From: Candidatus Amesbacteria bacterium RIFOXYB1_FULL_44_23
Lineage (GTDB): Bacteria; Patescibacteriota; Microgenomatia; CAZETR01; Amesbacteraceae
Length of the DNA: 64,000 nucleotides
NCBI GenBank assembly: GCA_001773775.1
Contig: MEXR01000032.1
Coordinates: 7,266 to 71,265 of the forward strand
Reading direction: 5' to 3'
This document shows, piece after piece, positions 3,195-22,074 of the stretch; position 1 is the stretch's first letter; each line of letters opens with the position of its first letter. The translations under genes and the position numbers were made by a program. The notes under the pieces were generated by a model. It saw only the letters and a list, made by a program, of their open reading frames with translations, was not told the origin of the DNA and did no database searches.

Positions 3195-3430
3195 AGTGTT
3201 TAAGGAAGGGTAATTGACGACATATAAGAGCAAGTTCCATTTTTGGTTACTTCAGTTTTCAGGGTTTGGGGCGAGAGAGGGTGTCCAGGTTGTTTGGAGG
3301 CACAAAAAAAATTATTTAGGACTTTTAGAGGGAGAGCTTCTAAATCATATTGATGTCCATTAAACATACATCCTTCACATTGAGCGGAGACGAATTTGGA
3401 TAGTTCGAGTAGGGTTGGCATGGGCTTAGA

Positions 3431-3649
3431 TTATATACTAAATCTATTCGTCTGATTACGATGGTCTTCTGTCGACGTCTGTGGGATCTGTCTTTTAAAA
3501 GCACATCGGTTACAATTTTGACTTAGGTGTTTCTTAAGTTGCTCTGGCGTTTGAGGCCTGTTTGATCTAGGAGAACCGCAGAACTCCGGGCGACCGGTGG
3601 TTTCTGGAGTGTAACTACAATCTGAGCAAACGGTTTCTGTGTAGGCCAT
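3431..3649 (-). CDS. Small zinc-ribbon-like protein (CxxC...CxxC), hypothetical
   Basis: 72-aa ORF between nusG and rplK with CSDC ... CNRC pairs. It loosely resembles an L33-like fold, but the true rpmG is elsewhere at 28882..29055. Confidence 0.3.
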   Translation of the reverse strand: MAYTETVCSDCSYTPETTGRPEFCGSPRSNRPQTPEQLKKHLSQNCNRCAFKRQIPQTSTEDHRNQTNRFSI

Positions 3650-5106: not shown

Positions 5107-6168
5107 TCAATTGGGTTGCATTTGCAGCTGAGACCACCAGTTGGAGAGCCAAGCGAAGGCGGTGATTTCGGTAAGGGAAGACTGGGTGAATGTTTCCGTA
5201 AAGGTGACGGCGGGTGGAGCGCTGATGGTTTTTTCGACGTGGGGGCCGAAAGATTTACCACAGTGGGGACACGGGTCGTGGCCAAAAGTGAGAACGGTAC
5301 CAATTTCCCGGCAACAAAGCGGACATCCTATGCAAAATACTTCCTGACCGATATGGAAATCGTAGGAGGCGGAAGTGGAAACGTAGACTGAGTTTGATTC
5401 CCCGCATCCGGAACCGGAAAAATCCATTGATTGACCTGAGATACTTACCATCTGGGTTTCGGCCTGAGCCCCAACCCGGTGCGGGGAGACGTCTTTAGCT
5501 AAATCAGCCTGAATGGCGATGGCAACCGGAATCATGTCTTGAGTGAGCTTTTGGCAACGGTTTTTAATTTCTCCGGAGTTGATTTGGCCCCAGACTTCGT
5601 CTGGTAAGTCGATCCAACGTTGAGCCAGTTTGCAAAGGTCTGTTGGGGAAGATGACGTAACGGAAAGAGGGGTCATGGCGGCGTCCTGGTTATGCAGGGG
5701 GGGGAGGTTTTTGGTGTCTGAAATGAGGGCAAATTGGTTAAGTCTGGCTTCGGTTTTTTGGGGGGATTCGTGGCGAAGCGGAATTCCGTAGGCGTCAAAA
5801 GTAACGGCGCCGTTTTGGTTTTTGACAAAATACAAATCGAGCCGGCCTTCAGGAAAATTGCTGGCCGGGCTGACCAGAATTACCAGTCGGTGTCGGTTGT
5901 CAGGGGTGCTTTGAATATGTCTTTCCAGATCCAGGGCAGCCAGAGAAGCATCAAAATCCGGTTTTTTAGTACTCAGGTTTTGGGGCAGACGGTTAAACCA
6001 CCAGATGCGATTCGGATCAATGTCTTTGTTAGTAGAAGCGGCTTCTACATTGAGCGAGGCGACGTCTGAGCTAACTTCTTCAAGAGGGGACGATCGGTAT
6101 AGGGAAACGTCGAGAGCGACGCGGGATTCGTTTGACATAGATTTTCCTGCTCGGGAACAGTGAACCAT
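5107..6168 (-). CDS. Hypothetical protein with C-terminal zinc-ribbon-like Cys cluster (CIGCPLCC...CPHCGK)
   Basis: 353-aa ORF with no recognisable catalytic motif; C-terminal cysteine cluster. Confidence 0.45.
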   Translation of the reverse strand: MVHCSRAGKSMSNESRVALDVSLYRSSPLEEVSSDVASLNVEAASTNKDIDPNRIWWFNRLPQNLSTKKPDFDASLAALDLERHIQSTPDNRHRLVILVSPASNFPEGRLDLYFVKNQNGAVTFDAYGIPLRHESPQKTEARLNQFALISDTKNLPPLHNQDAAMTPLSVTSSSPTDLCKLAQRWIDLPDEVWGQINSGEIKNRCQKLTQDMIPVAIAIQADLAKDVSPHRVGAQAETQMVSISGQSMDFSGSGCGESNSVYVSTSASYDFHIGQEVFCIGCPLCCREIGTVLTFGHDPCPHCGKSFGPHVEKTISAPPAVTFTETFTQSSLTEITAFAWLSNWWSQLQMQPN

Positions 6169-6515
6169 TAGTTTTCTGACTTTACAGTTGCGGCACAGTG
6201 GAGGAATTTCACCTCACTTCCTGAAACATGGTTTGGGGACTATATTTGCGGATTCGGGGTAGAATGTCAAGAAGAAAATGAACGCAGAAAACAGCCGTTA
6301 TTTGCTATGTTGTTGCGGAAGTAAGCTGAAATGTCCGACTTCGGTTCTGATAACCAGCATCTGGAAAGATGACGGACTGTGTACAGCTAACTGTCAAAGA
6401 AAAATCGACCAGGGATGGGTAGGCGAAGTTGAGCCGGTGGAAATACTACCAAACAGTGAAGGGAAGGAAGTGGCGGTGTGTGTTTTTGGAAGAATGTATG
6501 TTTTGGAGTGGAAAA

Positions 6516-7547
6516 CTATTGGGTTTTGCGGTCTGCTGCCAGAAGAGGTTTTAGAACCCGGGCAAGTTTTGCCGGATCGTGACGGATGCGATACAGTGTC
6601 GGAGTGATGCTGAAGACGTCTGCTTTAACAGGGGTAATATCGGATTTGATAAGTTCCTGAAGCTGAGAGTCGGTCCAGCCCAGAAAGTGTGAATGTTCGG
6701 CGGCGTAAGTGTCGGCTACTTTGGGATACTTGGTATCAAATTGATTTTCGGTAAGATGGGGACAGATAAAATAATCAAACGGATGTTTGAGCTTAGTGTA
6801 TTTTTGGAAAAGTCGAAGAAAATCGGCAGGTGAGAAACGATGAGTCTGGTTGCGGTTGGAAACCAAATTACTAACAAAAATGGTGGTGGCCTTTGAGGAC
6901 TTTAAGGCCGAAGTGATGCCGGTGGGAAGAAGATTACTGATAACCGATCCGTAGATACTGCCGGGGCTGTAAATGATGTGAGTAGCCTCCTGGATGGCGG
7001 TGACGGCTTGTTTGGTTGCTTTAACCGGGCGATCCAGCCAAATGTGAGTGATGACATTGGTGGAGAGGGACTGTTTGTCCAATTCATGTTCGCCGCAGAA
7101 AGTGTTGCCCAGCGAAGTGCTAAAACACAAATTGGCTGGTTCTGAGGTAATGGGAATGGCAGTACCCTGGAAGTGGATACCCAACAGTTGTTCTAAGTGG
7201 GATTGAACTTTTATAAAATCACCGTGGTATTTTTCCAGGAGAGCGTAGTAGATGGTGTAGCCGAGGTTACGGTTGCGGCCGTCGGTAAAGCTGACCAGGT
7301 CAATAAAAGATGAGACCTGTTCCAGATGATTTTGCTTGTCAGAAACCAAAGCCAGCAGGTTTCTAAGTAAGTCGGAAATGGCAATTACCCGGTCTCGTTC
7401 ATCGCTTCTGATAACACCGGTTTTACCGCCGCTGTCAGTGGAGGCTGAGACGGCTGAAATGTCAGTAAATCCAGCCATGGCCAGGGATTTGAGGATGGTA
7501 GGGGATCCGGTGCCGCCGCCTATAGTGACAATTTTAGTAGTTTTCAT
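6516..7547 (-). CDS. YvcK/CofD-family (UPF0052) protein
   Basis: N-terminal IVTIGGGTGSPTILKSL matches the GGGTG motif of the gluconeogenesis factor / 2-phospho-L-lactate transferase family. Confidence 0.5.
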   Translation of the reverse strand: MKTTKIVTIGGGTGSPTILKSLAMAGFTDISAVSASTDSGGKTGVIRSDERDRVIAISDLLRNLLALVSDKQNHLEQVSSFIDLVSFTDGRNRNLGYTIYYALLEKYHGDFIKVQSHLEQLLGIHFQGTAIPITSEPANLCFSTSLGNTFCGEHELDKQSLSTNVITHIWLDRPVKATKQAVTAIQEATHIIYSPGSIYGSVISNLLPTGITSALKSSKATTIFVSNLVSNRNQTHRFSPADFLRLFQKYTKLKHPFDYFICPHLTENQFDTKYPKVADTYAAEHSHFLGWTDSQLQELIKSDITPVKADVFSITPTLYRIRHDPAKLARVLKPLLAADRKTQ

Positions 7548-16814: not shown

Positions 16815-16904
16815 GTCCTTTTATATTATTATCCGATCAAACTTTAAATTCAATGTGGTAAGCATGGACAGAGCATTCGAAGCTATGATGTTCTGATTTG
16901 ACAA

Positions 16905-17171
16905 AACGTTGAGCCGGATGGTACCATTCGTCTACAATTTGCAAAAGCGTTTAAGTTTGGTTTCCCGCCAAACAAGCTGCTTGCGATGAGCAAGACGGAA
17001 GTCAACCGTAAGAATGAGACAAAGCGTGTCGGTAACGGAGCGCTACAAGCGTAAGCTTTTAGTTCCACCGAAAGGTGGTTTTTTTGTAGCTTACGAAAGC
17101 AGGGTGGTACCACGAGAAACCTCGTCCTTGCTCTTCAAGAAATATCTTGGAGGGTGAAGGCGAGGTTTTTT
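16905..17171 (+). promoter_or_regulatory. T-box leader (tRNA-sensing riboswitch), presumably proline-specific, ending in an intrinsic terminator
   Basis: The conserved T-box sequence AGGGTGGTACCACGAG lies at 17101..17116. A terminator hairpin (acctcgtcctt 17119..17129 pairing with aaggcgaggt 17157..17166, one bulge) is followed by T6 at 17166..17171, right before the ATG at 17172. The downstream operon ends in proS. Confidence 0.6.
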
Positions 17172-18566
17172 ATGTTTACAAATGCAAAACTTATACAAAA
17201 GAACTGGCGAAATACCCTGAAACAAGGGCAGGTGTCTTTGGTGGTCGTGAGGGAGGGAGAGGTTTTGTATGCCAATAAGGTGTCCGGAGTTTCTGGTCTG
17301 GTTGATTGTTTTAAGCAGGATTTATTGTCAGGAAGTGAGGTCTATGACACCAAGATTGGGTTGGCGGCGGCGAAACTTTTAGTGTGGGGGAAGGCAAGAT
17401 CAGTGTTTGCACTTACGGCGAGTCAGTCCGCTGTAAACTTTTGCAAAGCAAATAATCTGGCAGTTGAGAGTGTGAAGCAGGTGGACCGGTTGTACTTTTC
17501 TAATGATTTAGGTGGATGCCTATTTGAGAAGACAGCCTTCGGAGCGCAGAGAGCGGAAGATTTAATCAGGGGTTTGGAAGGACTAGGGGAGGTAAGAGTT
17601 GAGAGGTGTACAAAAGACGGTGTCTTTCCCCTGAATTATTATTCCACGTCAAATAGAAAAACATGGGTCAATCTGCAAGGGAAATGGACTGCGGTCAGGC
17701 ATCCTGAAATGGATAAGGCGATCAGAGTTGGGAGAAAGAAAGCCCGGACTGTGGCGACCTGCGAAGTTAAAAGAGGAGATATGGTAGTGGTCGGAGACGG
17801 GTTGGGGGTGTATGAGGAGAAAGTCGAGTTGAAAAAGGGCCAGGATTTTGGCTTTATGAGTAGTGAGGTTAGTGCAGAGAGGCCCAAAGAAGCACTGATT
17901 GGCAGGGTGGCTGAAATAATGCGGGAAAGCAGGCGAGAGGGTAAGCGAACGCTTTTAGTAGGGGGTCCGGCGATAGTTCATACCGGTTCGGGAAAATATT
18001 TGTCCGGACTAATCCGGTCCGGATGGATAGACGTACTGTTTGGAGGAAACGCCATAGCTGCTCATGACTTAGAAGAAAATTATCTGGGGACGTCTTTGGG
18101 GACAGAGGTGACTTCCGGAAACAGGATTGAGGGGGGTCATCATCATCACCTGAGGACTATCAATACGATTCGGTTTTACGGGGGAATTAAAAATGCCGTG
18201 GTCGCCAAAGTGATTAAATCCGGAATTTTTTATGAGTGTGTCCGAAGCGGAACGAAGTTTGTTTTAGCCGGGTCCATCAGGGACGACGGTCCGTTAACAG
18301 ACGTGATCACAGATTCGGTAAGGGCACAAATGGAGATGAGAAAAGAAACCAGAAATGGTTTCGGCGTAGCCCTGATGGTGGCTACGACTTTACACTCAGT
18401 TGCTACGGGCAATTTGTTGTCTTTTGATACCACCAAAATCATCGTTGATGACAATCTGGCTTCAGTGACTAAGTTAGCTGATCGGGGGACTAATGCCTTA
18501 GGAATTGTGACCGATTGCGCTTATTTTTTGAGCCAATTATGTAATAAGCTGGAGGTGGAGATATGA
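17172..18566 (+). CDS. Conserved hypothetical protein (465 aa) under T-box control, coupled to proS; possibly ornithine-cyclodeaminase/LOR-SDH-like (speculative)
   Basis: The ORF track starts at a GTG at 17154, but that sits inside the terminator and T-run. The first ATG at 17172 is more plausible. The stop overlaps the proS start (ATGA). The C-terminal half has Gly-rich motifs (LLVGGPAIVHTGSG, GGHHHH) and no clear family. Confidence 0.55.
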   Translation: MFTNAKLIQKNWRNTLKQGQVSLVVVREGEVLYANKVSGVSGLVDCFKQDLLSGSEVYDTKIGLAAAKLLVWGKARSVFALTASQSAVNFCKANNLAVESVKQVDRLYFSNDLGGCLFEKTAFGAQRAEDLIRGLEGLGEVRVERCTKDGVFPLNYYSTSNRKTWVNLQGKWTAVRHPEMDKAIRVGRKKARTVATCEVKRGDMVVVGDGLGVYEEKVELKKGQDFGFMSSEVSAERPKEALIGRVAEIMRESRREGKRTLLVGGPAIVHTGSGKYLSGLIRSGWIDVLFGGNAIAAHDLEENYLGTSLGTEVTSGNRIEGGHHHHLRTINTIRFYGGIKNAVVAKVIKSGIFYECVRSGTKFVLAGSIRDDGPLTDVITDSVRAQMEMRKETRNGFGVALMVATTLHSVATGNLLSFDTTKIIVDDNLASVTKLADRGTNALGIVTDCAYFLSQLCNKLEVEI

Positions 18567-19993
18567 AAGATTTTATTAAAAAGAATTTACCCAAAAAGAG
18601 TCAAAGCTTGTCTGAATGGTATAACCGGGTGGTAATGCTGGCTGAACTGGCTGATTATGGACCCGCCAGAGGGACTATGATTTTTCGGCCTTACGGATAT
18701 GCGATTTGGGAAACGGTGCAGAAATACATGGATGAGAAAATCAAGGCCAGCGGGGTGGAGAATGCATATTTTCCGCTTTTTATCCCCGAGTCTTTATTGG
18801 CTAAAGAGAAAGATCATATCAAGGGGTTTGCTCCTGAGTTGGCGGTAGTAACGATCGGAGGCGGAGAAGAATTGAAGGAGAGGCTGGTAGTAAGACCGAC
18901 CAGTGAAACGATAATGTACCAGGCGTATGCCAATTGGATAAAGTCATGGCGGGACTTGCCGGTTTTGGTTAACCAATGGAATAACGTAGTCCGCTGGGAA
19001 AAACGTACTTATCTGTTTCTTCGGACTCTGGAATTTCTGTGGCAGGAAGGACATTGTGCTCATGCGACCTGGGAAGAGTCGTGGGAGAGGGTGCTGTGGG
19101 GAATTAAATTGTACGAGCAAACATATCGTGAAATATTTGCATTGCCAACGGTGGTGGGAAGGAAATCGGAATCTGAGAAGTTTGCCGGGGGTGTGGCGAC
19201 TTTGACTTGTGAAGTTTTGATGCCGGAAGGCAAGGCTTTGCAGGGTTGCACATCGCATGATTTGGGGCAAAATTTTTCCAGAGCACAGAACATCAAGTTT
19301 CAGGATAAAGACAGAAGTGCCAAATATGTCTGGCAAAACAGCTGGGGTTTTACCACCAGATCTATAGGAGGAATGCTAATGGCACATGGGGATGATGCGG
19401 GAGCGGTACTGCCCCCAAGAGCTGCTCCTGTTCAAGTAGTAATCATATTGGCAAAAAGCGAAACCGACGTAACGGAGTATGCCAAAAAAGTTGAGTTGGA
19501 GTTGGTTCAACTGGGTTTAAGAGTGAAATTGGACGATCGGGAAGAGGAGTCAATGGGGTACAAAATCAATAAATGGGAACTGAGAGGGGTGCCCTTACGG
19601 ATTGAAATTGGCATTAAAGAGGTGAGGAGTCAGAATTTGACGATTGTTAGAAGGGACAACCAGACCAGACTTCTGATTTCAAATAACAACTTGGGAACAG
19701 TCAAGACGTTGCTGGACACTATTCAGTCTGATATGTTGGCTAGGCAGGAAAGATTTCTAGCTGAGAATACTTTTGAGGCTATTACGTATAATAGATTTAG
19801 CGAAATAATGAAAACAACGAAAGGTTTTATTAAGGCGTTTTGGTGCGAGCGAGCGGAATGCGAAATGACAATTAAAGAAGAGACCAAAGCTTCGACTAGA
19901 TGCCTTCCTTTGGATGCGCCGAAAGAAAACGGAGTCTGTGTTAAATGCGGTGAACCGGCAATTCACCGCTGGTTATTTGCTCAGGCCTATTGA
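18563..19993 (+). CDS. proS: Prolyl-tRNA synthetase, archaeal/eukaryotic type (no INS editing domain)
   Basis: Class II motifs (FRPYGYAIWE, RPTSETIMY, WNNVVRWE, TRSIGG) and a C-terminal zinc-binding extension. Confidence 0.9.
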   Translation: MKDFIKKNLPKKSQSLSEWYNRVVMLAELADYGPARGTMIFRPYGYAIWETVQKYMDEKIKASGVENAYFPLFIPESLLAKEKDHIKGFAPELAVVTIGGGEELKERLVVRPTSETIMYQAYANWIKSWRDLPVLVNQWNNVVRWEKRTYLFLRTLEFLWQEGHCAHATWEESWERVLWGIKLYEQTYREIFALPTVVGRKSESEKFAGGVATLTCEVLMPEGKALQGCTSHDLGQNFSRAQNIKFQDKDRSAKYVWQNSWGFTTRSIGGMLMAHGDDAGAVLPPRAAPVQVVIILAKSETDVTEYAKKVELELVQLGLRVKLDDREEESMGYKINKWELRGVPLRIEIGIKEVRSQNLTIVRRDNQTRLLISNNNLGTVKTLLDTIQSDMLARQERFLAENTFEAITYNRFSEIMKTTKGFIKAFWCERAECEMTIKEETKASTRCLPLDAPKENGVCVKCGEPAIHRWLFAQAY

Positions 19994-20007: not shown

Positions 20008-20343
20008 ATGGCAACTATTGATGATTTTAACGCACTAGATATCAGAGTGGGAAAAATTGTGGAAGTTGAGGATTTCCCCGAGGCAAGGAAACCTTCATAT
20101 AAGCTAACAATTGATTTTGGACCAGAAATCGGGATAAAGCACTCAAGCGCTCAATTGGTTAAGCACTACACAAAAGAAGAGCTAAAAAACAAGCTGGTGT
20201 TGGGTGTGGTCAATTTTCCCCCGCGCCAAATCGGTCCTTTTATATCCGAATCACTTACTCTGGGAGTTCCGGATGAAAACCATGATTGCATTCTAATTGC
20301 ACCCGATAAAGCCACGGCAGTGGTAGGAGGAAAACTATATTAG
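20008..20343 (+). CDS. tRNA-binding domain protein (CsaA/Trbp111/EMAP-like OB fold)
   Basis: LDIRVGKIVEVEDFPEARKPSYKLTIDFGPE is the classic tRNA-binding OB-fold signature. Confidence 0.7.
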   Translation: MATIDDFNALDIRVGKIVEVEDFPEARKPSYKLTIDFGPEIGIKHSSAQLVKHYTKEELKNKLVLGVVNFPPRQIGPFISESLTLGVPDENHDCILIAPDKATAVVGGKLY

Positions 20344-20555
20344 GATTGATTCCAGAATTCGAATTTCGATCTAGCGTCGATACTATTAGACGAGTTCTGA
20401 TCAGGGTTTGGGTGGGTATGGGCGGAAATCCGTTCGAACCTGTTTAGCCATTAAGTTATTATTGGGTTATGTTCAAAATCGTGGCCTGCCCGGTTGATAA
20501 AAGAGAAGTGGGGGAGTTGGCTCGTGAGATCGGGGGCTTTTATATTTGAAAATGT

Positions 20556-20786
20556 ATGACTAAACGACAGGTTTGGCAAACGATAGCCTTGGATTTGAAG
20601 AGAGCGGCTAATTATTTGCATGCTAAGAGATACCGGCAGGCAGAATTTTATTTAGATGAGGCCAAACAACTGTACAAGACCGCTTCTTTTGACGACAAGA
20701 TGCGCTCTGTTGAGAAGTTTATAAGCTTTAGCGGTGATCCGGAAGGGATTTTGTTGGGGAGCAGTATTATTTCAGGGAGACTGTAA
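20556..20786 (+). CDS. Small hypothetical protein
   Basis: 76-aa ORF in an AT-rich stretch. Confidence 0.25.
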   Translation: MTKRQVWQTIALDLKRAANYLHAKRYRQAEFYLDEAKQLYKTASFDDKMRSVEKFISFSGDPEGILLGSSIISGRL

Positions 20787-20875
20787 AACCCGGCTGGCCT
20801 GATGGAAAGTATTCTAGCCTGTTCCTCTCAAATTTAGTATTTACTATCTTTGTAAAATATGTTAGAAGTTCTTAA

Positions 20876-21109
20876 ATGTCAGATGAACGTTTAGGTCCGG
20901 CAGAAACAAGGGTAGATATTAGAAGATATATCGAAGAACACCCCGAAGGTGTAAATATTTCTCCAACTGTTCTTGCGGCCATTGCTAGGCAGAGAAAATG
21001 GTCGGATCTTGTAGATCCTGTAAGAAGAATAACTTCAGGTCTAAAAACTTTAGGAGTTGTACGTATAGAGGGTTTAATTGCTAAACCCGTTCCTCGAAGG
21101 AAGCATTAA
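20876..21109 (+). CDS. Small hypothetical protein
   Basis: 77-aa ORF in an AT-rich stretch. Confidence 0.25.
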   Translation: MSDERLGPAETRVDIRRYIEEHPEGVNISPTVLAAIARQRKWSDLVDPVRRITSGLKTLGVVRIEGLIAKPVPRRKH

Positions 21110-21264
21110 AATTTGTTCAGAGGGCTTTGATGGAAGACGTCTGCGGTAAACCACTACCCCCTTTGATACAGAACGAAGCTGTTACGCACAAAATTTAACA
21201 TAACAGACTAGATAGAATGGCCTCACGCGGTTATAATCTCACTTAGTAAAACAACTAAATAGCC

Positions 21265-22074
21265 ATGAATATGCCTGATTTCGATGAGTCTCGAGTTATA
21301 TTTGAAAAGAGATGGCAGGAGTATGTTAATAATTTTCTTGCCTCACCATCTAATTCCAAGGTATTTAAAGCGTACGAGTCCGGGGGAATCTTATCTCCTG
21401 AAAATAGGAATGTGGTAGAGCATCAAATCATGGCAAGATTCGTAGTTGAGGTGTTGTGTGATTTGTGTGGTGTAGACGGAAATGAAAAGGAAGACGGCTT
21501 AACAGCAGCAAGTCTGCACGATTTCAATGTGCTCGAAGAAAAATTCGGCAGAAGAAACGGGAAATATAAACATTACCGGGATATAGAATCGCTGAAAGAA
21601 AAAGATCGTAATACACTCAGAGAGTTGGGGTTTTCAGAGGAAGCAATTAGTCTGACGGATGCTAACATAACGCACGAAGAGGGGGGTCCAAAATCACTAA
21701 CCGCGATGTTTTTGTTCTTGGCTGACGCCTGCATCTCCGGAACAAAAATCGTAGATATCAGAAAAAGATTTGCGGATACAAGGATGGGGTGGCGCAGCGA
21801 CAAGAAGCGAATAGATGATAAAACAGCGCAGGAGAATGCATATTATTATGATCATTTTTGGAAAGGGGCTCCGGGGCACGGAGACAGGCCGCATGATGAA
21901 GTACAACTGGAAACTGCCGCAAGAATATGTAGTGATTTGGTAGGAATATTAAGAGAGAAGCAGGCAGATACTAAAAATCCCAAATACGCACGCATATTTG
22001 GCCCAAATGGAGATTCAAACCTACTTCCAGAGTATATACGGGATAAAGTGAACGAAAAAGTTGCAAACGTCTAA
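21265..22074 (+). CDS. Hypothetical protein, possible HD-domain phosphohydrolase
   Basis: H...HD pattern (VVEHQIMARF ... AASLHDFNVLEE); weak. Confidence 0.35.
   Translation: MNMPDFDESRVIFEKRWQEYVNNFLASPSNSKVFKAYESGGILSPENRNVVEHQIMARFVVEVLCDLCGVDGNEKEDGLTAASLHDFNVLEEKFGRRNGKYKHYRDIESLKEKDRNTLRELGFSEEAISLTDANITHEEGGPKSLTAMFLFLADACISGTKIVDIRKRFADTRMGWRSDKKRIDDKTAQENAYYYDHFWKGAPGHGDRPHDEVQLETAARICSDLVGILREKQADTKNPKYARIFGPNGDSNLLPEYIRDKVNEKVANV

Follow-up and report, generated by a model that had tools for sequence, protein, structure and literature searches.

Can a tRNA-sensing riboswitch of the T-box family control a gene cluster in a bacterium of the candidate phyla radiation (CPR), and if so, for which amino acid and through which output? 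The question is raised by a locus on contig MEXR01000032.1, of which a stretch of 64,000 nucleotides ("the window") was analysed. The DNA comes from Candidatus Amesbacteria, which belongs to the Microgenomates and hence to the CPR/Patescibacteria; this host adds interest to the original remark that T-box control is uncommon outside Firmicutes and Actinobacteria. The operon lies on the + strand, where a leader (16941–17171) precedes genes for a fusion of a TM1506 domain with an ornithine cyclodeaminase (OCD) core, for a prolyl-tRNA synthetase (proS) and for a CsaA-like protein; coordinates are window positions unless a locus with an L-number is named. From the sequence of the leader and of its relatives we conclude that it is very probably a structurally minimised, proline-specific T-box controlling the TM1506-OCD fusion, proS and csaA, an assessment that covers both its identity and its regulatory logic.

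The leader and the Rfam T-box family

Positions 16941–17171 comprise the parts of a complete T-box leader RNA, namely a decoding module, linker hairpins, a discriminator and a terminator. Under permissive filters, the Rfam model RF00230 matches the leader (16941–17132) with 38.6 bits; the E-value is 3.7e-7 when calculated locally and 5e-5 when the entire window is searched. The curated gathering threshold of this model is 93 bits, and a default scan of the window at gathering thresholds reported four tRNAs and an AdoCbl-II riboswitch, leaving the T-box unreported. The discriminator aligns almost perfectly with the model, whereas 86 model positions of stem I are represented by 20 nt, stem II is shortened, and an insertion of about 25 nt follows stem IIA/B. 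The low score results from stem I being a 6-bp hairpin and stem II a 5-bp hairpin, and all relatives of this short-stem-I class score in the same range (30.9–43.1 bits). The fold z-score of the leader is -5.6.

The check that had been proposed for the original prediction, a significant Rfam match with a foldable stem I that carries a specifier loop, thus gave a divided answer: the match is significant by E-value, while the score stays below the gathering threshold and stem I is ultrashort, with its codon in the terminal loop. As the leader is outside RF00230 by Rfam's own criterion, comparative analysis had to decide whether it is a T-box, and it is the comparative evidence, not Rfam, that establishes the element.

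Related leaders and covariation

The same leader is found in at least 11 independent contigs from metagenomes or metagenome-assembled genomes. The three further loci that code for a fusion protein (L001, L002 and L003) all have the window's leader type. Collections of genome and metagenome contigs were scanned with exact patterns of 17 specified bases, and most of the matches came from unrelated phyla and were due to chance; the true relatives were filtered by the presence of a downstream T-box core and later by a covariance model, R1, built from an unedited alignment. These scans added L058, L071, L120, L152, L155, L210, L226 and L239, which have an identical stem I loop (GGUUUCCCGCC), together with sister leaders at L034, L042 and L110. 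Two candidates, L149 and L170, were dropped as chance matches.

In a hand-curated alignment of 11 leaders (A3), 92.7% of the proposed pairs are standard pairs, compared to 24–37% when the partners are slid by 1–3 columns. Eleven pairs are changed on both sides, as opposed to 1–3 in the slid controls and 4.0 +/- 1.2 in shuffled alignments, and none of 500 shuffles reaches 11, a significance that is overstated by the relation of the leaders by descent. The covariation backs stems I, II, IIA and IIB as well as an additional hairpin, H. As A3 had been fitted by hand, RNAalifold was also run on an unedited MAFFT alignment, and the five helices were again obtained de novo; 8 of 27 pairs show compensatory changes.

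Model R1 scores the window leader at 111.8 bits, but this leader is one of its training sequences. Members that had been held out were also found, with 62.8 bits for L034, 34.7 for L042, 31.7 for the tyrosine T-box of L001/L163, 31.1 for L040 and 22.7 for L080, while about 35 unrelated control loci gave nothing under E = 0.1. On these sequence comparisons, a chance match is excluded by the Rfam E-value together with conservation and covariation in independent contigs.

Three of the contigs, L058 (CAZIYS010000001.1), L034 (CAZRYK010000003.1) and L120 (CAYHWU010000005.1), are labelled "uncultured Gammaproteobacteria". We did not accept these labels, given the Microgenomates-type gene content, and they probably represent a taxonomic mislabelling of the bins. 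L058, the only one of the three that was checked singly, codes for a prolyl-tRNA synthetase (ProRS) that shares 88% identity with a protein of Candidatus Roizmanbacteria.

Decoding module

The decoding module starts with an ultrashort stem I (16946–16978), which is obtained de novo by RNAalifold and is backed by compensatory changes and by the RF00230 alignment. Its basal helix has 3 bp (16946–16948 / 16976–16978) with a degenerate K-turn-like bulge, and its upper helix has 6 bp (16955–16960 / 16968–16973), in which GUUUGG/CCAAAC in some leaders is exchanged for GCGG/CCGC in others. The 7-nt loop UUUCCCG (16961–16967) closes the stem, so that the specifier loop is terminal rather than internal. 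The proline codon CCC (16964–16966) occupies loop positions 4–6 and a conserved purine, G, position 7; this specifier (16964–16967) is invariant in 11 leaders. A CCN codon in stem I is what the original prediction had anticipated.

Stem II, which in the RF00230 family has an S-turn, consists here of a helix of 5 bp and a conserved pentaloop, GAUGA (16980–16994), a possible site of an S-turn-like purine stack. It is found de novo by RNAalifold and covaries, with double, compensatory changes at 4 of its 5 pairs. The adjoining region (16995–17020) consists of stem IIA (16995–16998 / 17006–17009), an F-box-like CCGUAA and the IIB pseudoknot, in which GUC (17001–17003) pairs with GAC (17018–17020). 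Three of four pairs of the IIA/B pseudoknot covary, in the combinations GUC/GAC, GGA(U)/(A)UCC and GCCU/AGGC, and the sister leaders have the pairings CCC/GGG, GAGU/ACUC and CCUC/GAGG.

Between stem IIA/B and stem III, the leader has an additional conserved hairpin, H (GCGUGUCG-GUAA-CGGAGCGC, 17024–17043), which constitutes an insertion relative to the Rfam model. It has an invariant core, consisting of a U.G / G.A / U.G block and a GNRA loop, and covarying outer pairs. Its pattern, RYGUGUCG-loop-CGGAGCRY, is not part of the Rfam consensus. Hairpin H occurs in Microgenomates T-boxes with a short as well as with a long stem I, the latter being canonical tyrosine T-boxes (L001, about 7380–7400; L120, about 6077–6100).

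Stem III (17051–17094) is variable. At its apex, upstream of the T-box sequence, there is a short GC hairpin (CCACCGAAAGGTGG) with a run of seven T residues (17065–17085), which was noted in the original prediction and matches a terminator-like pattern in our scan. A hairpin with 7–8 U is present at this position in 6 of 11 leaders (window, L071, L152, L155, L210 and L226), the structure being kept and the sequence unrelated, and likewise in the L120 tyrosine T-box (about 6120–6147), which has a canonical long stem I. Judging from its sequence, the embedded hairpin could be a programmed pause, or a weak or early terminator.

Codon specificity and the proline regulon

The genes behind leaders with a CCC loop form a coherent proline regulon. 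L058 has ornithine aminotransferase (OAT), proC and proS in this position, L071 a proC-like gene, csaA and proS, L120 proB, proC and proS, L152 and L239 proB, proA and proC, and L042 and L155 csaA and proS. In the loci with the fusion gene, the order is OCD fusion, proS and csaA, or OCD fusion, acetyltransferase and proS. This consistent linkage identifies the specifier as that for proline, with CCC followed by a purine.

An independent calibration of the codon register is provided by L040 (Candidatus Saccharimonadales, DATIIC010000014.1, 2161–2410), where a T-box with short stem I, the loop CUUGCCA (GCC followed by A) and a terminator is located upstream of alaS. The downstream gene is assigned as alanyl-tRNA synthetase with 599 bits (cut-off 529). 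The minimal architecture thus extends to alanine and to the Saccharibacteria.

Control of proS by such leaders is patchy. A further leader variant precedes proS of Daviesbacteria (L245), and the leader was not found at the proS loci of Levy-, Woese- and Roizmanbacteria (L244, L246 and L247). Nor was a T-box found at L004, which codes for an OCD core that lacks the TM1506 domain.

Several of the loci contain further tRNA-related elements. tRNA genes are positioned 100–160 nt upstream of proline leaders in L001 (3607–3679, Glu-CUC), L226 (6378–6461, Tyr-GUA) and L034 (1109–1185, - strand, Arg-CCG), none of these being a tRNA-Pro gene. L001 has a second T-box (7216–7510, equivalent to the L163 region 5331–5409) that attains 100 bits, above the Rfam threshold, with UAC (Tyr) in its specifier region GAAUUACC; it directly follows the proline operon and is located upstream of genes for chorismate mutase, DAHP synthase and prephenate dehydrogenase. 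No counterpart was found downstream of csaA in the window (20343–21265). In L120, a tRNA-Tyr(GTA) gene starts no more than about 5 nt behind a canonical T-box with long stem I, UAC (Tyr) in the specifier region and a terminator (5925–6303, + strand, 72 bits), and a 275-aa open reading frame (ORF) without Pfam match comes next. A T-box straight in front of the gene for its own ligand would be unusual.

Expression platform

The T-box sequence and antiterminator (17101–17129) are the best-aligned part of the RF00230 match, with a posterior probability symbol of "*" throughout. The T-box core AGGGTGGTACCACGAG (equivalent to AGGGUGGUACCACGAG) is present at 17101–17116, as had been predicted, and fits the conserved AGGGUGGNACCGCG with its 7-nt UGGN bulge. 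Antiterminator helices AGGG / CCUU and ACGAG / CUCGU flank the bulge UGGUACC (17105–17111), and the isolated antiterminator folds with -13.0 kcal/mol. By its sequence, UGGU would pair with a tRNA 3' end ACCA, which predicts a tRNA with discriminator A.

The antiterminator is followed by an intrinsic terminator (17120–17171; minimum free energy -36.1 kcal/mol). The hairpin, the six T residues and the ATG at 17172 are present, like all other sequence features of the original prediction, at the coordinates given there or no more than one or two bases away; the stem, however, has about 20 bp, interrupted by a single C/A mismatch (17120–17165, followed by U6 at 17166–17171), and not the 10 bp that had been assumed. 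Antiterminator and terminator are mutually exclusive, as the strand CUCGUCCUU (17121–17129) is used by both. This strand sharing, combined with a long hairpin and a directly following run of 5–8 U, is present in 16 of 16 related leaders (15 folded together, plus L245).

The 3' arm of the terminator contains a GAGG that resembles a Shine-Dalgarno (SD) sequence and is separated by U6 from the ATG (17162–17174), so that the terminator would also occlude the ribosome-binding site. In this genome, SD sequences of GGAGG type are found at proS and csaA. The same layout, with GAGG or GGAG in the 3' arm and the AUG 0–2 nt past the U-run, is found in L001, L003, L058, L071, L152, L226 and L245.

It is from this layout that an alternative explanation derives, according to which the T-box is purely translational, as in the class II of Actinobacteria, the hairpin being an SD sequestrator and the U-run nothing else than the spacer between SD and AUG. 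The other T-boxes known to have an ultrashort stem I are translational ones (PMC7583486, section 6.2), and the window and seven relatives have the appropriate position of GAGG and ATG. We consider this explanation unlikely, because 5–8 U always follow the hairpin directly, even in L120, L155, L210 and L239, where SD and start codon are found 11–17 nt further downstream, and because hairpin and U-run are arranged as in a canonical intrinsic terminator. In these four loci, occlusion of the SD is impossible, so that termination would be the only role of the hairpin there. Also, actinobacterial sequestrators are said, in work by Sherwood from 2015, to be devoid of U-tracts. Based on the sequences, we have concluded that transcription attenuation is the likely output of the whole family, with translational occlusion as a probable add-on in a subset that includes the window.

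A promoter of sigma-70 type is located just upstream of the leader (16898–16927), with TTGACA at 16898–16903, an 18-nt spacer and a TG-extended -10 box TACCAT at 16922–16927; 10 of 12 positions match, in addition to the TG (TGgTACCAT). Every relative has TATAAT, spaced from the leader exactly as the -10 box of the window. The original prediction had interpreted 16916–16927 as a second GGATGGTACCA-like element. The sequence is present, but it is the extended -10 box and not a T-box element.

Genes of the operon

The first gene (17172–18566) codes for a protein of 464 aa, which has a 100% identical counterpart in Candidatus Amesbacteria bacterium RIFOXYB1_FULL_44_23, annotated as a "hypothetical protein". 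That it is not the synthetase had been recognised from the start, but it is no longer a protein of unknown function. A TM1506/DUF1893 domain extends over aa 14–135 (17211–17576; PF08973 with 60 bits, cut-off 27; PDB 1vk9) and is fused to an ornithine cyclodeaminase core (aa 137–461, approximately), which consists of the subdomains ArgZ-like_C_1st (17658–17900; PF21571, 70.7 bits) and ArgZ-like_C_2nd (17904–18539; PF21570, 268.1 bits). The match to TIGR00300 (348.9 bits) is confined to model positions 77–405. Structures of AgrE/ArgZ (6lrf/6lrh and 6juy) and the structure 3c2q match over aa 138–461 with E-values from 6.7e-82 to 2e-70. The speculation that the gene might be an ornithine-cyclodeaminase/LOR-SDH-like enzyme proved to be well founded (PF21570 with 268 bits, TIGR00300 with 349 bits, AgrE/ArgZ structures with E-values around 1e-75).

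Proline is formed by AgrE, which has a homologous domain, from arginine with ornithine as the intermediate (PMC8262935, citing Burnat 2019 and Lee & Rhee 2020). The stand-alone TIGR00300 family is described, in a passage that refers to Desguin 2025 (via PMC13524815), as an ornithine cyclodeaminase that depends on nickel-pincer adenine dinucleotide (NPAD). Genes resembling LarB, LarC or LarE were not detected among the 20 larger ORFs scanned in the 64-kb window, which is a part of the genome. In the sister operons, the slot of the OCD fusion is taken by proBA or OAT. We thus regard the fusion gene, on sequence similarity, as a probable ornithine cyclodeaminase of AgrE/TIGR00300 type, expected to convert ornithine to proline and NH3.

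A different substrate or role is conceivable for this gene, for example the cyclodeamination of lysine to pipecolate, a reaction of LOR/SDH type, or a regulation by which TM1506 would sense NAD or ADP-ribose. The TIGR00300 score is below the equivalog cut-off, and the fusion is rare, with 4 clusters (at 90% identity) among the best 120 matches. Such a role is nevertheless improbable, as the alignment of the catalytic core with AgrE/ArgZ and 3c2q runs from end to end (E-values of 1e-70 to 1e-82) and the gene takes the place of proB-proA, OAT or proC under a proline leader, as expected of an alternative route to proline.

Ornithine cyclodeaminase thus remains our preferred assignment, and the fusion gene is followed by proS (18563–19993). 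As had been noted originally, its ATG overlaps the TGA of the fusion gene (ATGA, 18563–18566), and a GGAGG is positioned just upstream. The product is a type I prolyl-tRNA synthetase, which is archaeal/eukaryote-like (TIGR00408, 533.9 bits, cut-off 437). This type is also encoded by L001, L003 and L155, whereas the bacterial type II, either full-length or in a short form of about 420 aa, occurs in L002 (3599–4306), L042, L058 (2649–4364), L071 (545–1828, - strand) and L120. With both types being found under one leader class, the synthetase has been exchanged under a riboswitch that stayed conserved.

The last gene of the operon (20008–20343) codes for a tRNA-binding protein similar to CsaA/Trbp111 (NF007495, 147.9 bits; PF01588). 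Under proline leaders, csaA also adjoins proS in L001 (6835–7170), L071 (1812–2147, - strand), L155 (435–791, - strand), L042 (3070–3402) and L080 (from about 7740), being the first regulated gene in L042 and L080. This gene order suggests that the CsaA-like protein may be a trans-acting accessory factor for tRNA-Pro or ProRS.

Two additional features were noted. L002 has a GNAT acetyltransferase (3202–3594; similar to the amino-acid N-acetyltransferase PRK07757, 120 bits) between the OCD fusion and proS, which is possibly linked to ornithine supply. Elsewhere in the window, an AdoCbl-II riboswitch aptamer (6162–6234, - strand; 39.5 bits, Rfam threshold 36.5) is located at the 5' end of an ORF for 353 aa without Pfam match (5107–6168, - strand).

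Proposed mechanism

We infer the following course of events. Transcription would start at about 16935–16941 from the TTGACA/TGgTACCAT promoter. The nascent leader would fold a compact decoding module, consisting of the short stem I with CCC and G, stem II, the IIA/B pseudoknot and hairpin H, and this module would capture tRNA-Pro by its anticodon, GGG being the presumable isoacceptor. If the tRNA is uncharged, its 3' ACCA would pair with UGGU (17105–17108) and stabilise the antiterminator (17101–17129), allowing RNA polymerase to read through. With a charged tRNA, or with none, the antiterminator would lose its 3' strand to the hairpin of about 20 bp (17120–17165) which, with U6, is predicted to end transcription and in addition to bury the GAGG that lies 6 nt before the ATG. 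Limitation for proline would thus be expected to result in more one-step synthesis of proline from ornithine and in more ProRS.

Several points weigh against this interpretation. The leader fails the gathering threshold of RF00230 (38.6 vs 93 bits), the covariation alignment was fitted by hand, and the statistics derived from its shuffles are affected by the common descent of the leaders. The distal interdigitated T-loop platform (AG bulge and distal loop), which is the dock for the tRNA elbow, is missing, as stem I ends in its 7-nt loop. Transcriptional T-boxes generally need the elbow platform of a long stem I for fast capture of the tRNA (PMC7583486, section 6.2). In M. tuberculosis ileS, a shortening of stem II abolished tRNA binding (PMC11297988), and stem II of the window is far shorter. 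A tRNA-Pro gene, with which the pairing of the anticodon (GGG?) and of discriminator A73 could be compared, was not found in the window and 24 loci. The fusion protein does not reach the equivalog cut-off of TIGR00300 (348.9 vs 410.8 bits), a shortfall that we ascribe to the replacement of the usual N-terminal domain PF04455 by PF08973. Finally, the class is known from sequence alone.

That the leader is a decayed, non-functional remnant or a chance match, with the operon being constitutive, would agree with an Rfam score under half of the threshold and with the loss of most of stem I, but is extremely improbable, as the element is conserved between lineages at 47–65% protein identity, shows compensatory changes in five helices including the pseudoknot, is consistently associated with proline genes, has an intact terminator in every copy and is detected in held-out members by a class model that found nothing under E 0.1 in about 35 control loci.

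We thus favour a functional proline T-box, and beyond this single locus we advance, tentatively and with somewhat more doubt than conviction, a more general proposal: Patescibacteria may use a distinct, uncatalogued class of T-boxes with miniaturised stems I and II, without elbow contact, with a co-transcriptional read-out that is sometimes accompanied by SD occlusion, and with specificities that include at least proline (CCC) and alanine (GCC). If true, this would conflict with the rule that transcriptional T-boxes need a long stem I platform to capture tRNA fast enough, and a compensating device would be implied. Candidates are hairpin H, as a new contact to the tRNA, and the stem III hairpin with its U-run, as a programmed pause. 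The idea of compensation is weakened by the presence of both elements in tyrosine T-boxes with long stem I, which characterises them as CPR-wide traits. This applies in particular to the pause (hairpin and U7) as a specific substitute for the missing platform, as the hairpin is shared by the canonical tyrosine T-box of L120.

Comparison with known systems

Should the proposed function be correct, bacteria of the CPR, with their reduced genomes, make use of tRNA-sensing riboswitches. In a literature search of limited coverage, no paper was found that links T-boxes to CPR/Patescibacteria, and a search for TIGR00300 was likewise empty. The class II model of TBDB was built for Actinobacteria only (PMC7778990). 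With scores of 31–43 bits, as opposed to a threshold of 93 bits, the class would be missed by pipelines and databases that depend on RF00230 or on such an Actinobacteria-only class II model. A natural, minimal decoding module of about 100 nt that is coupled to a terminator would challenge the indispensability of the stem I elbow platform, and it could be a compact scaffold for tRNA-responsive switches. The riboswitch may also be read as a functional label, by which the TM1506-OCD fusion and the CsaA/Trbp111-like protein would be connected to proline supply and to the charging of tRNA-Pro. The resulting picture, which is testable, is that of an organism with almost no biosynthesis that would obtain proline from ornithine in one step.

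The core of the fusion protein, of about 320 residues in two subdomains (PF21571 and PF21570), is shared with AgrE/ArgZ and TIGR00300 (6lrf, 6juy and 3c2q). The N-terminal partner differs, being TM1506/DUF1893 in the window, PF04455 in stand-alone TIGR00300 proteins and an arginine dihydrolase domain in AgrE/ArgZ. The N-terminal 120 residues match TM1506 (PDB 1vk9, DUF1893) with 60 bits. Known members of that family are stand-alone proteins or are linked to aldo/keto reductases and transport proteins, while the fusion to OCD and the CPR do not appear in the contexts and lineages that a survey of the family gives.

With the class I T-boxes of Firmicutes (RF00230; B. subtilis tyrS and glyQS), among which proline-specific leaders of proBA and proI are examples, the window leader shares the UGGN bulge, the common strand of antiterminator and terminator, the IIA/B pseudoknot with F-box, a specifier codon followed by a purine, and targets in aminoacyl-tRNA synthetases and amino-acid biosynthesis. 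It differs from these in the absence of a distal stem I, a specifier in the terminal loop, a stem II of 5 bp with GAUGA, the extra hairpin H, the SD within the terminator and the host, a member of the Patescibacteria. With the class II leaders of actinobacterial ileS (M. tuberculosis and M. smegmatis), it shares the truncation of stem I below the elbow platform, a module that depends on stem II and on the IIA/B pseudoknot adjacent to the specifier, and an SD in the strand that alternates with an antiterminator-type helix. Differences to these are the terminator with U-tract, the miniature stem II, the specificity for proline or alanine instead of isoleucine, and the phylum. When class II is taken as a truncated stem I combined with a sequestrator that lacks a terminator, the leader has the former, whereas in place of the latter there is a hairpin with U6 here and U5–8 in the relatives. 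What is new is thus a proline-specific, terminator-coupled T-box with a minimal decoding module in the CPR, while its core mechanism is that of the known T-box family.

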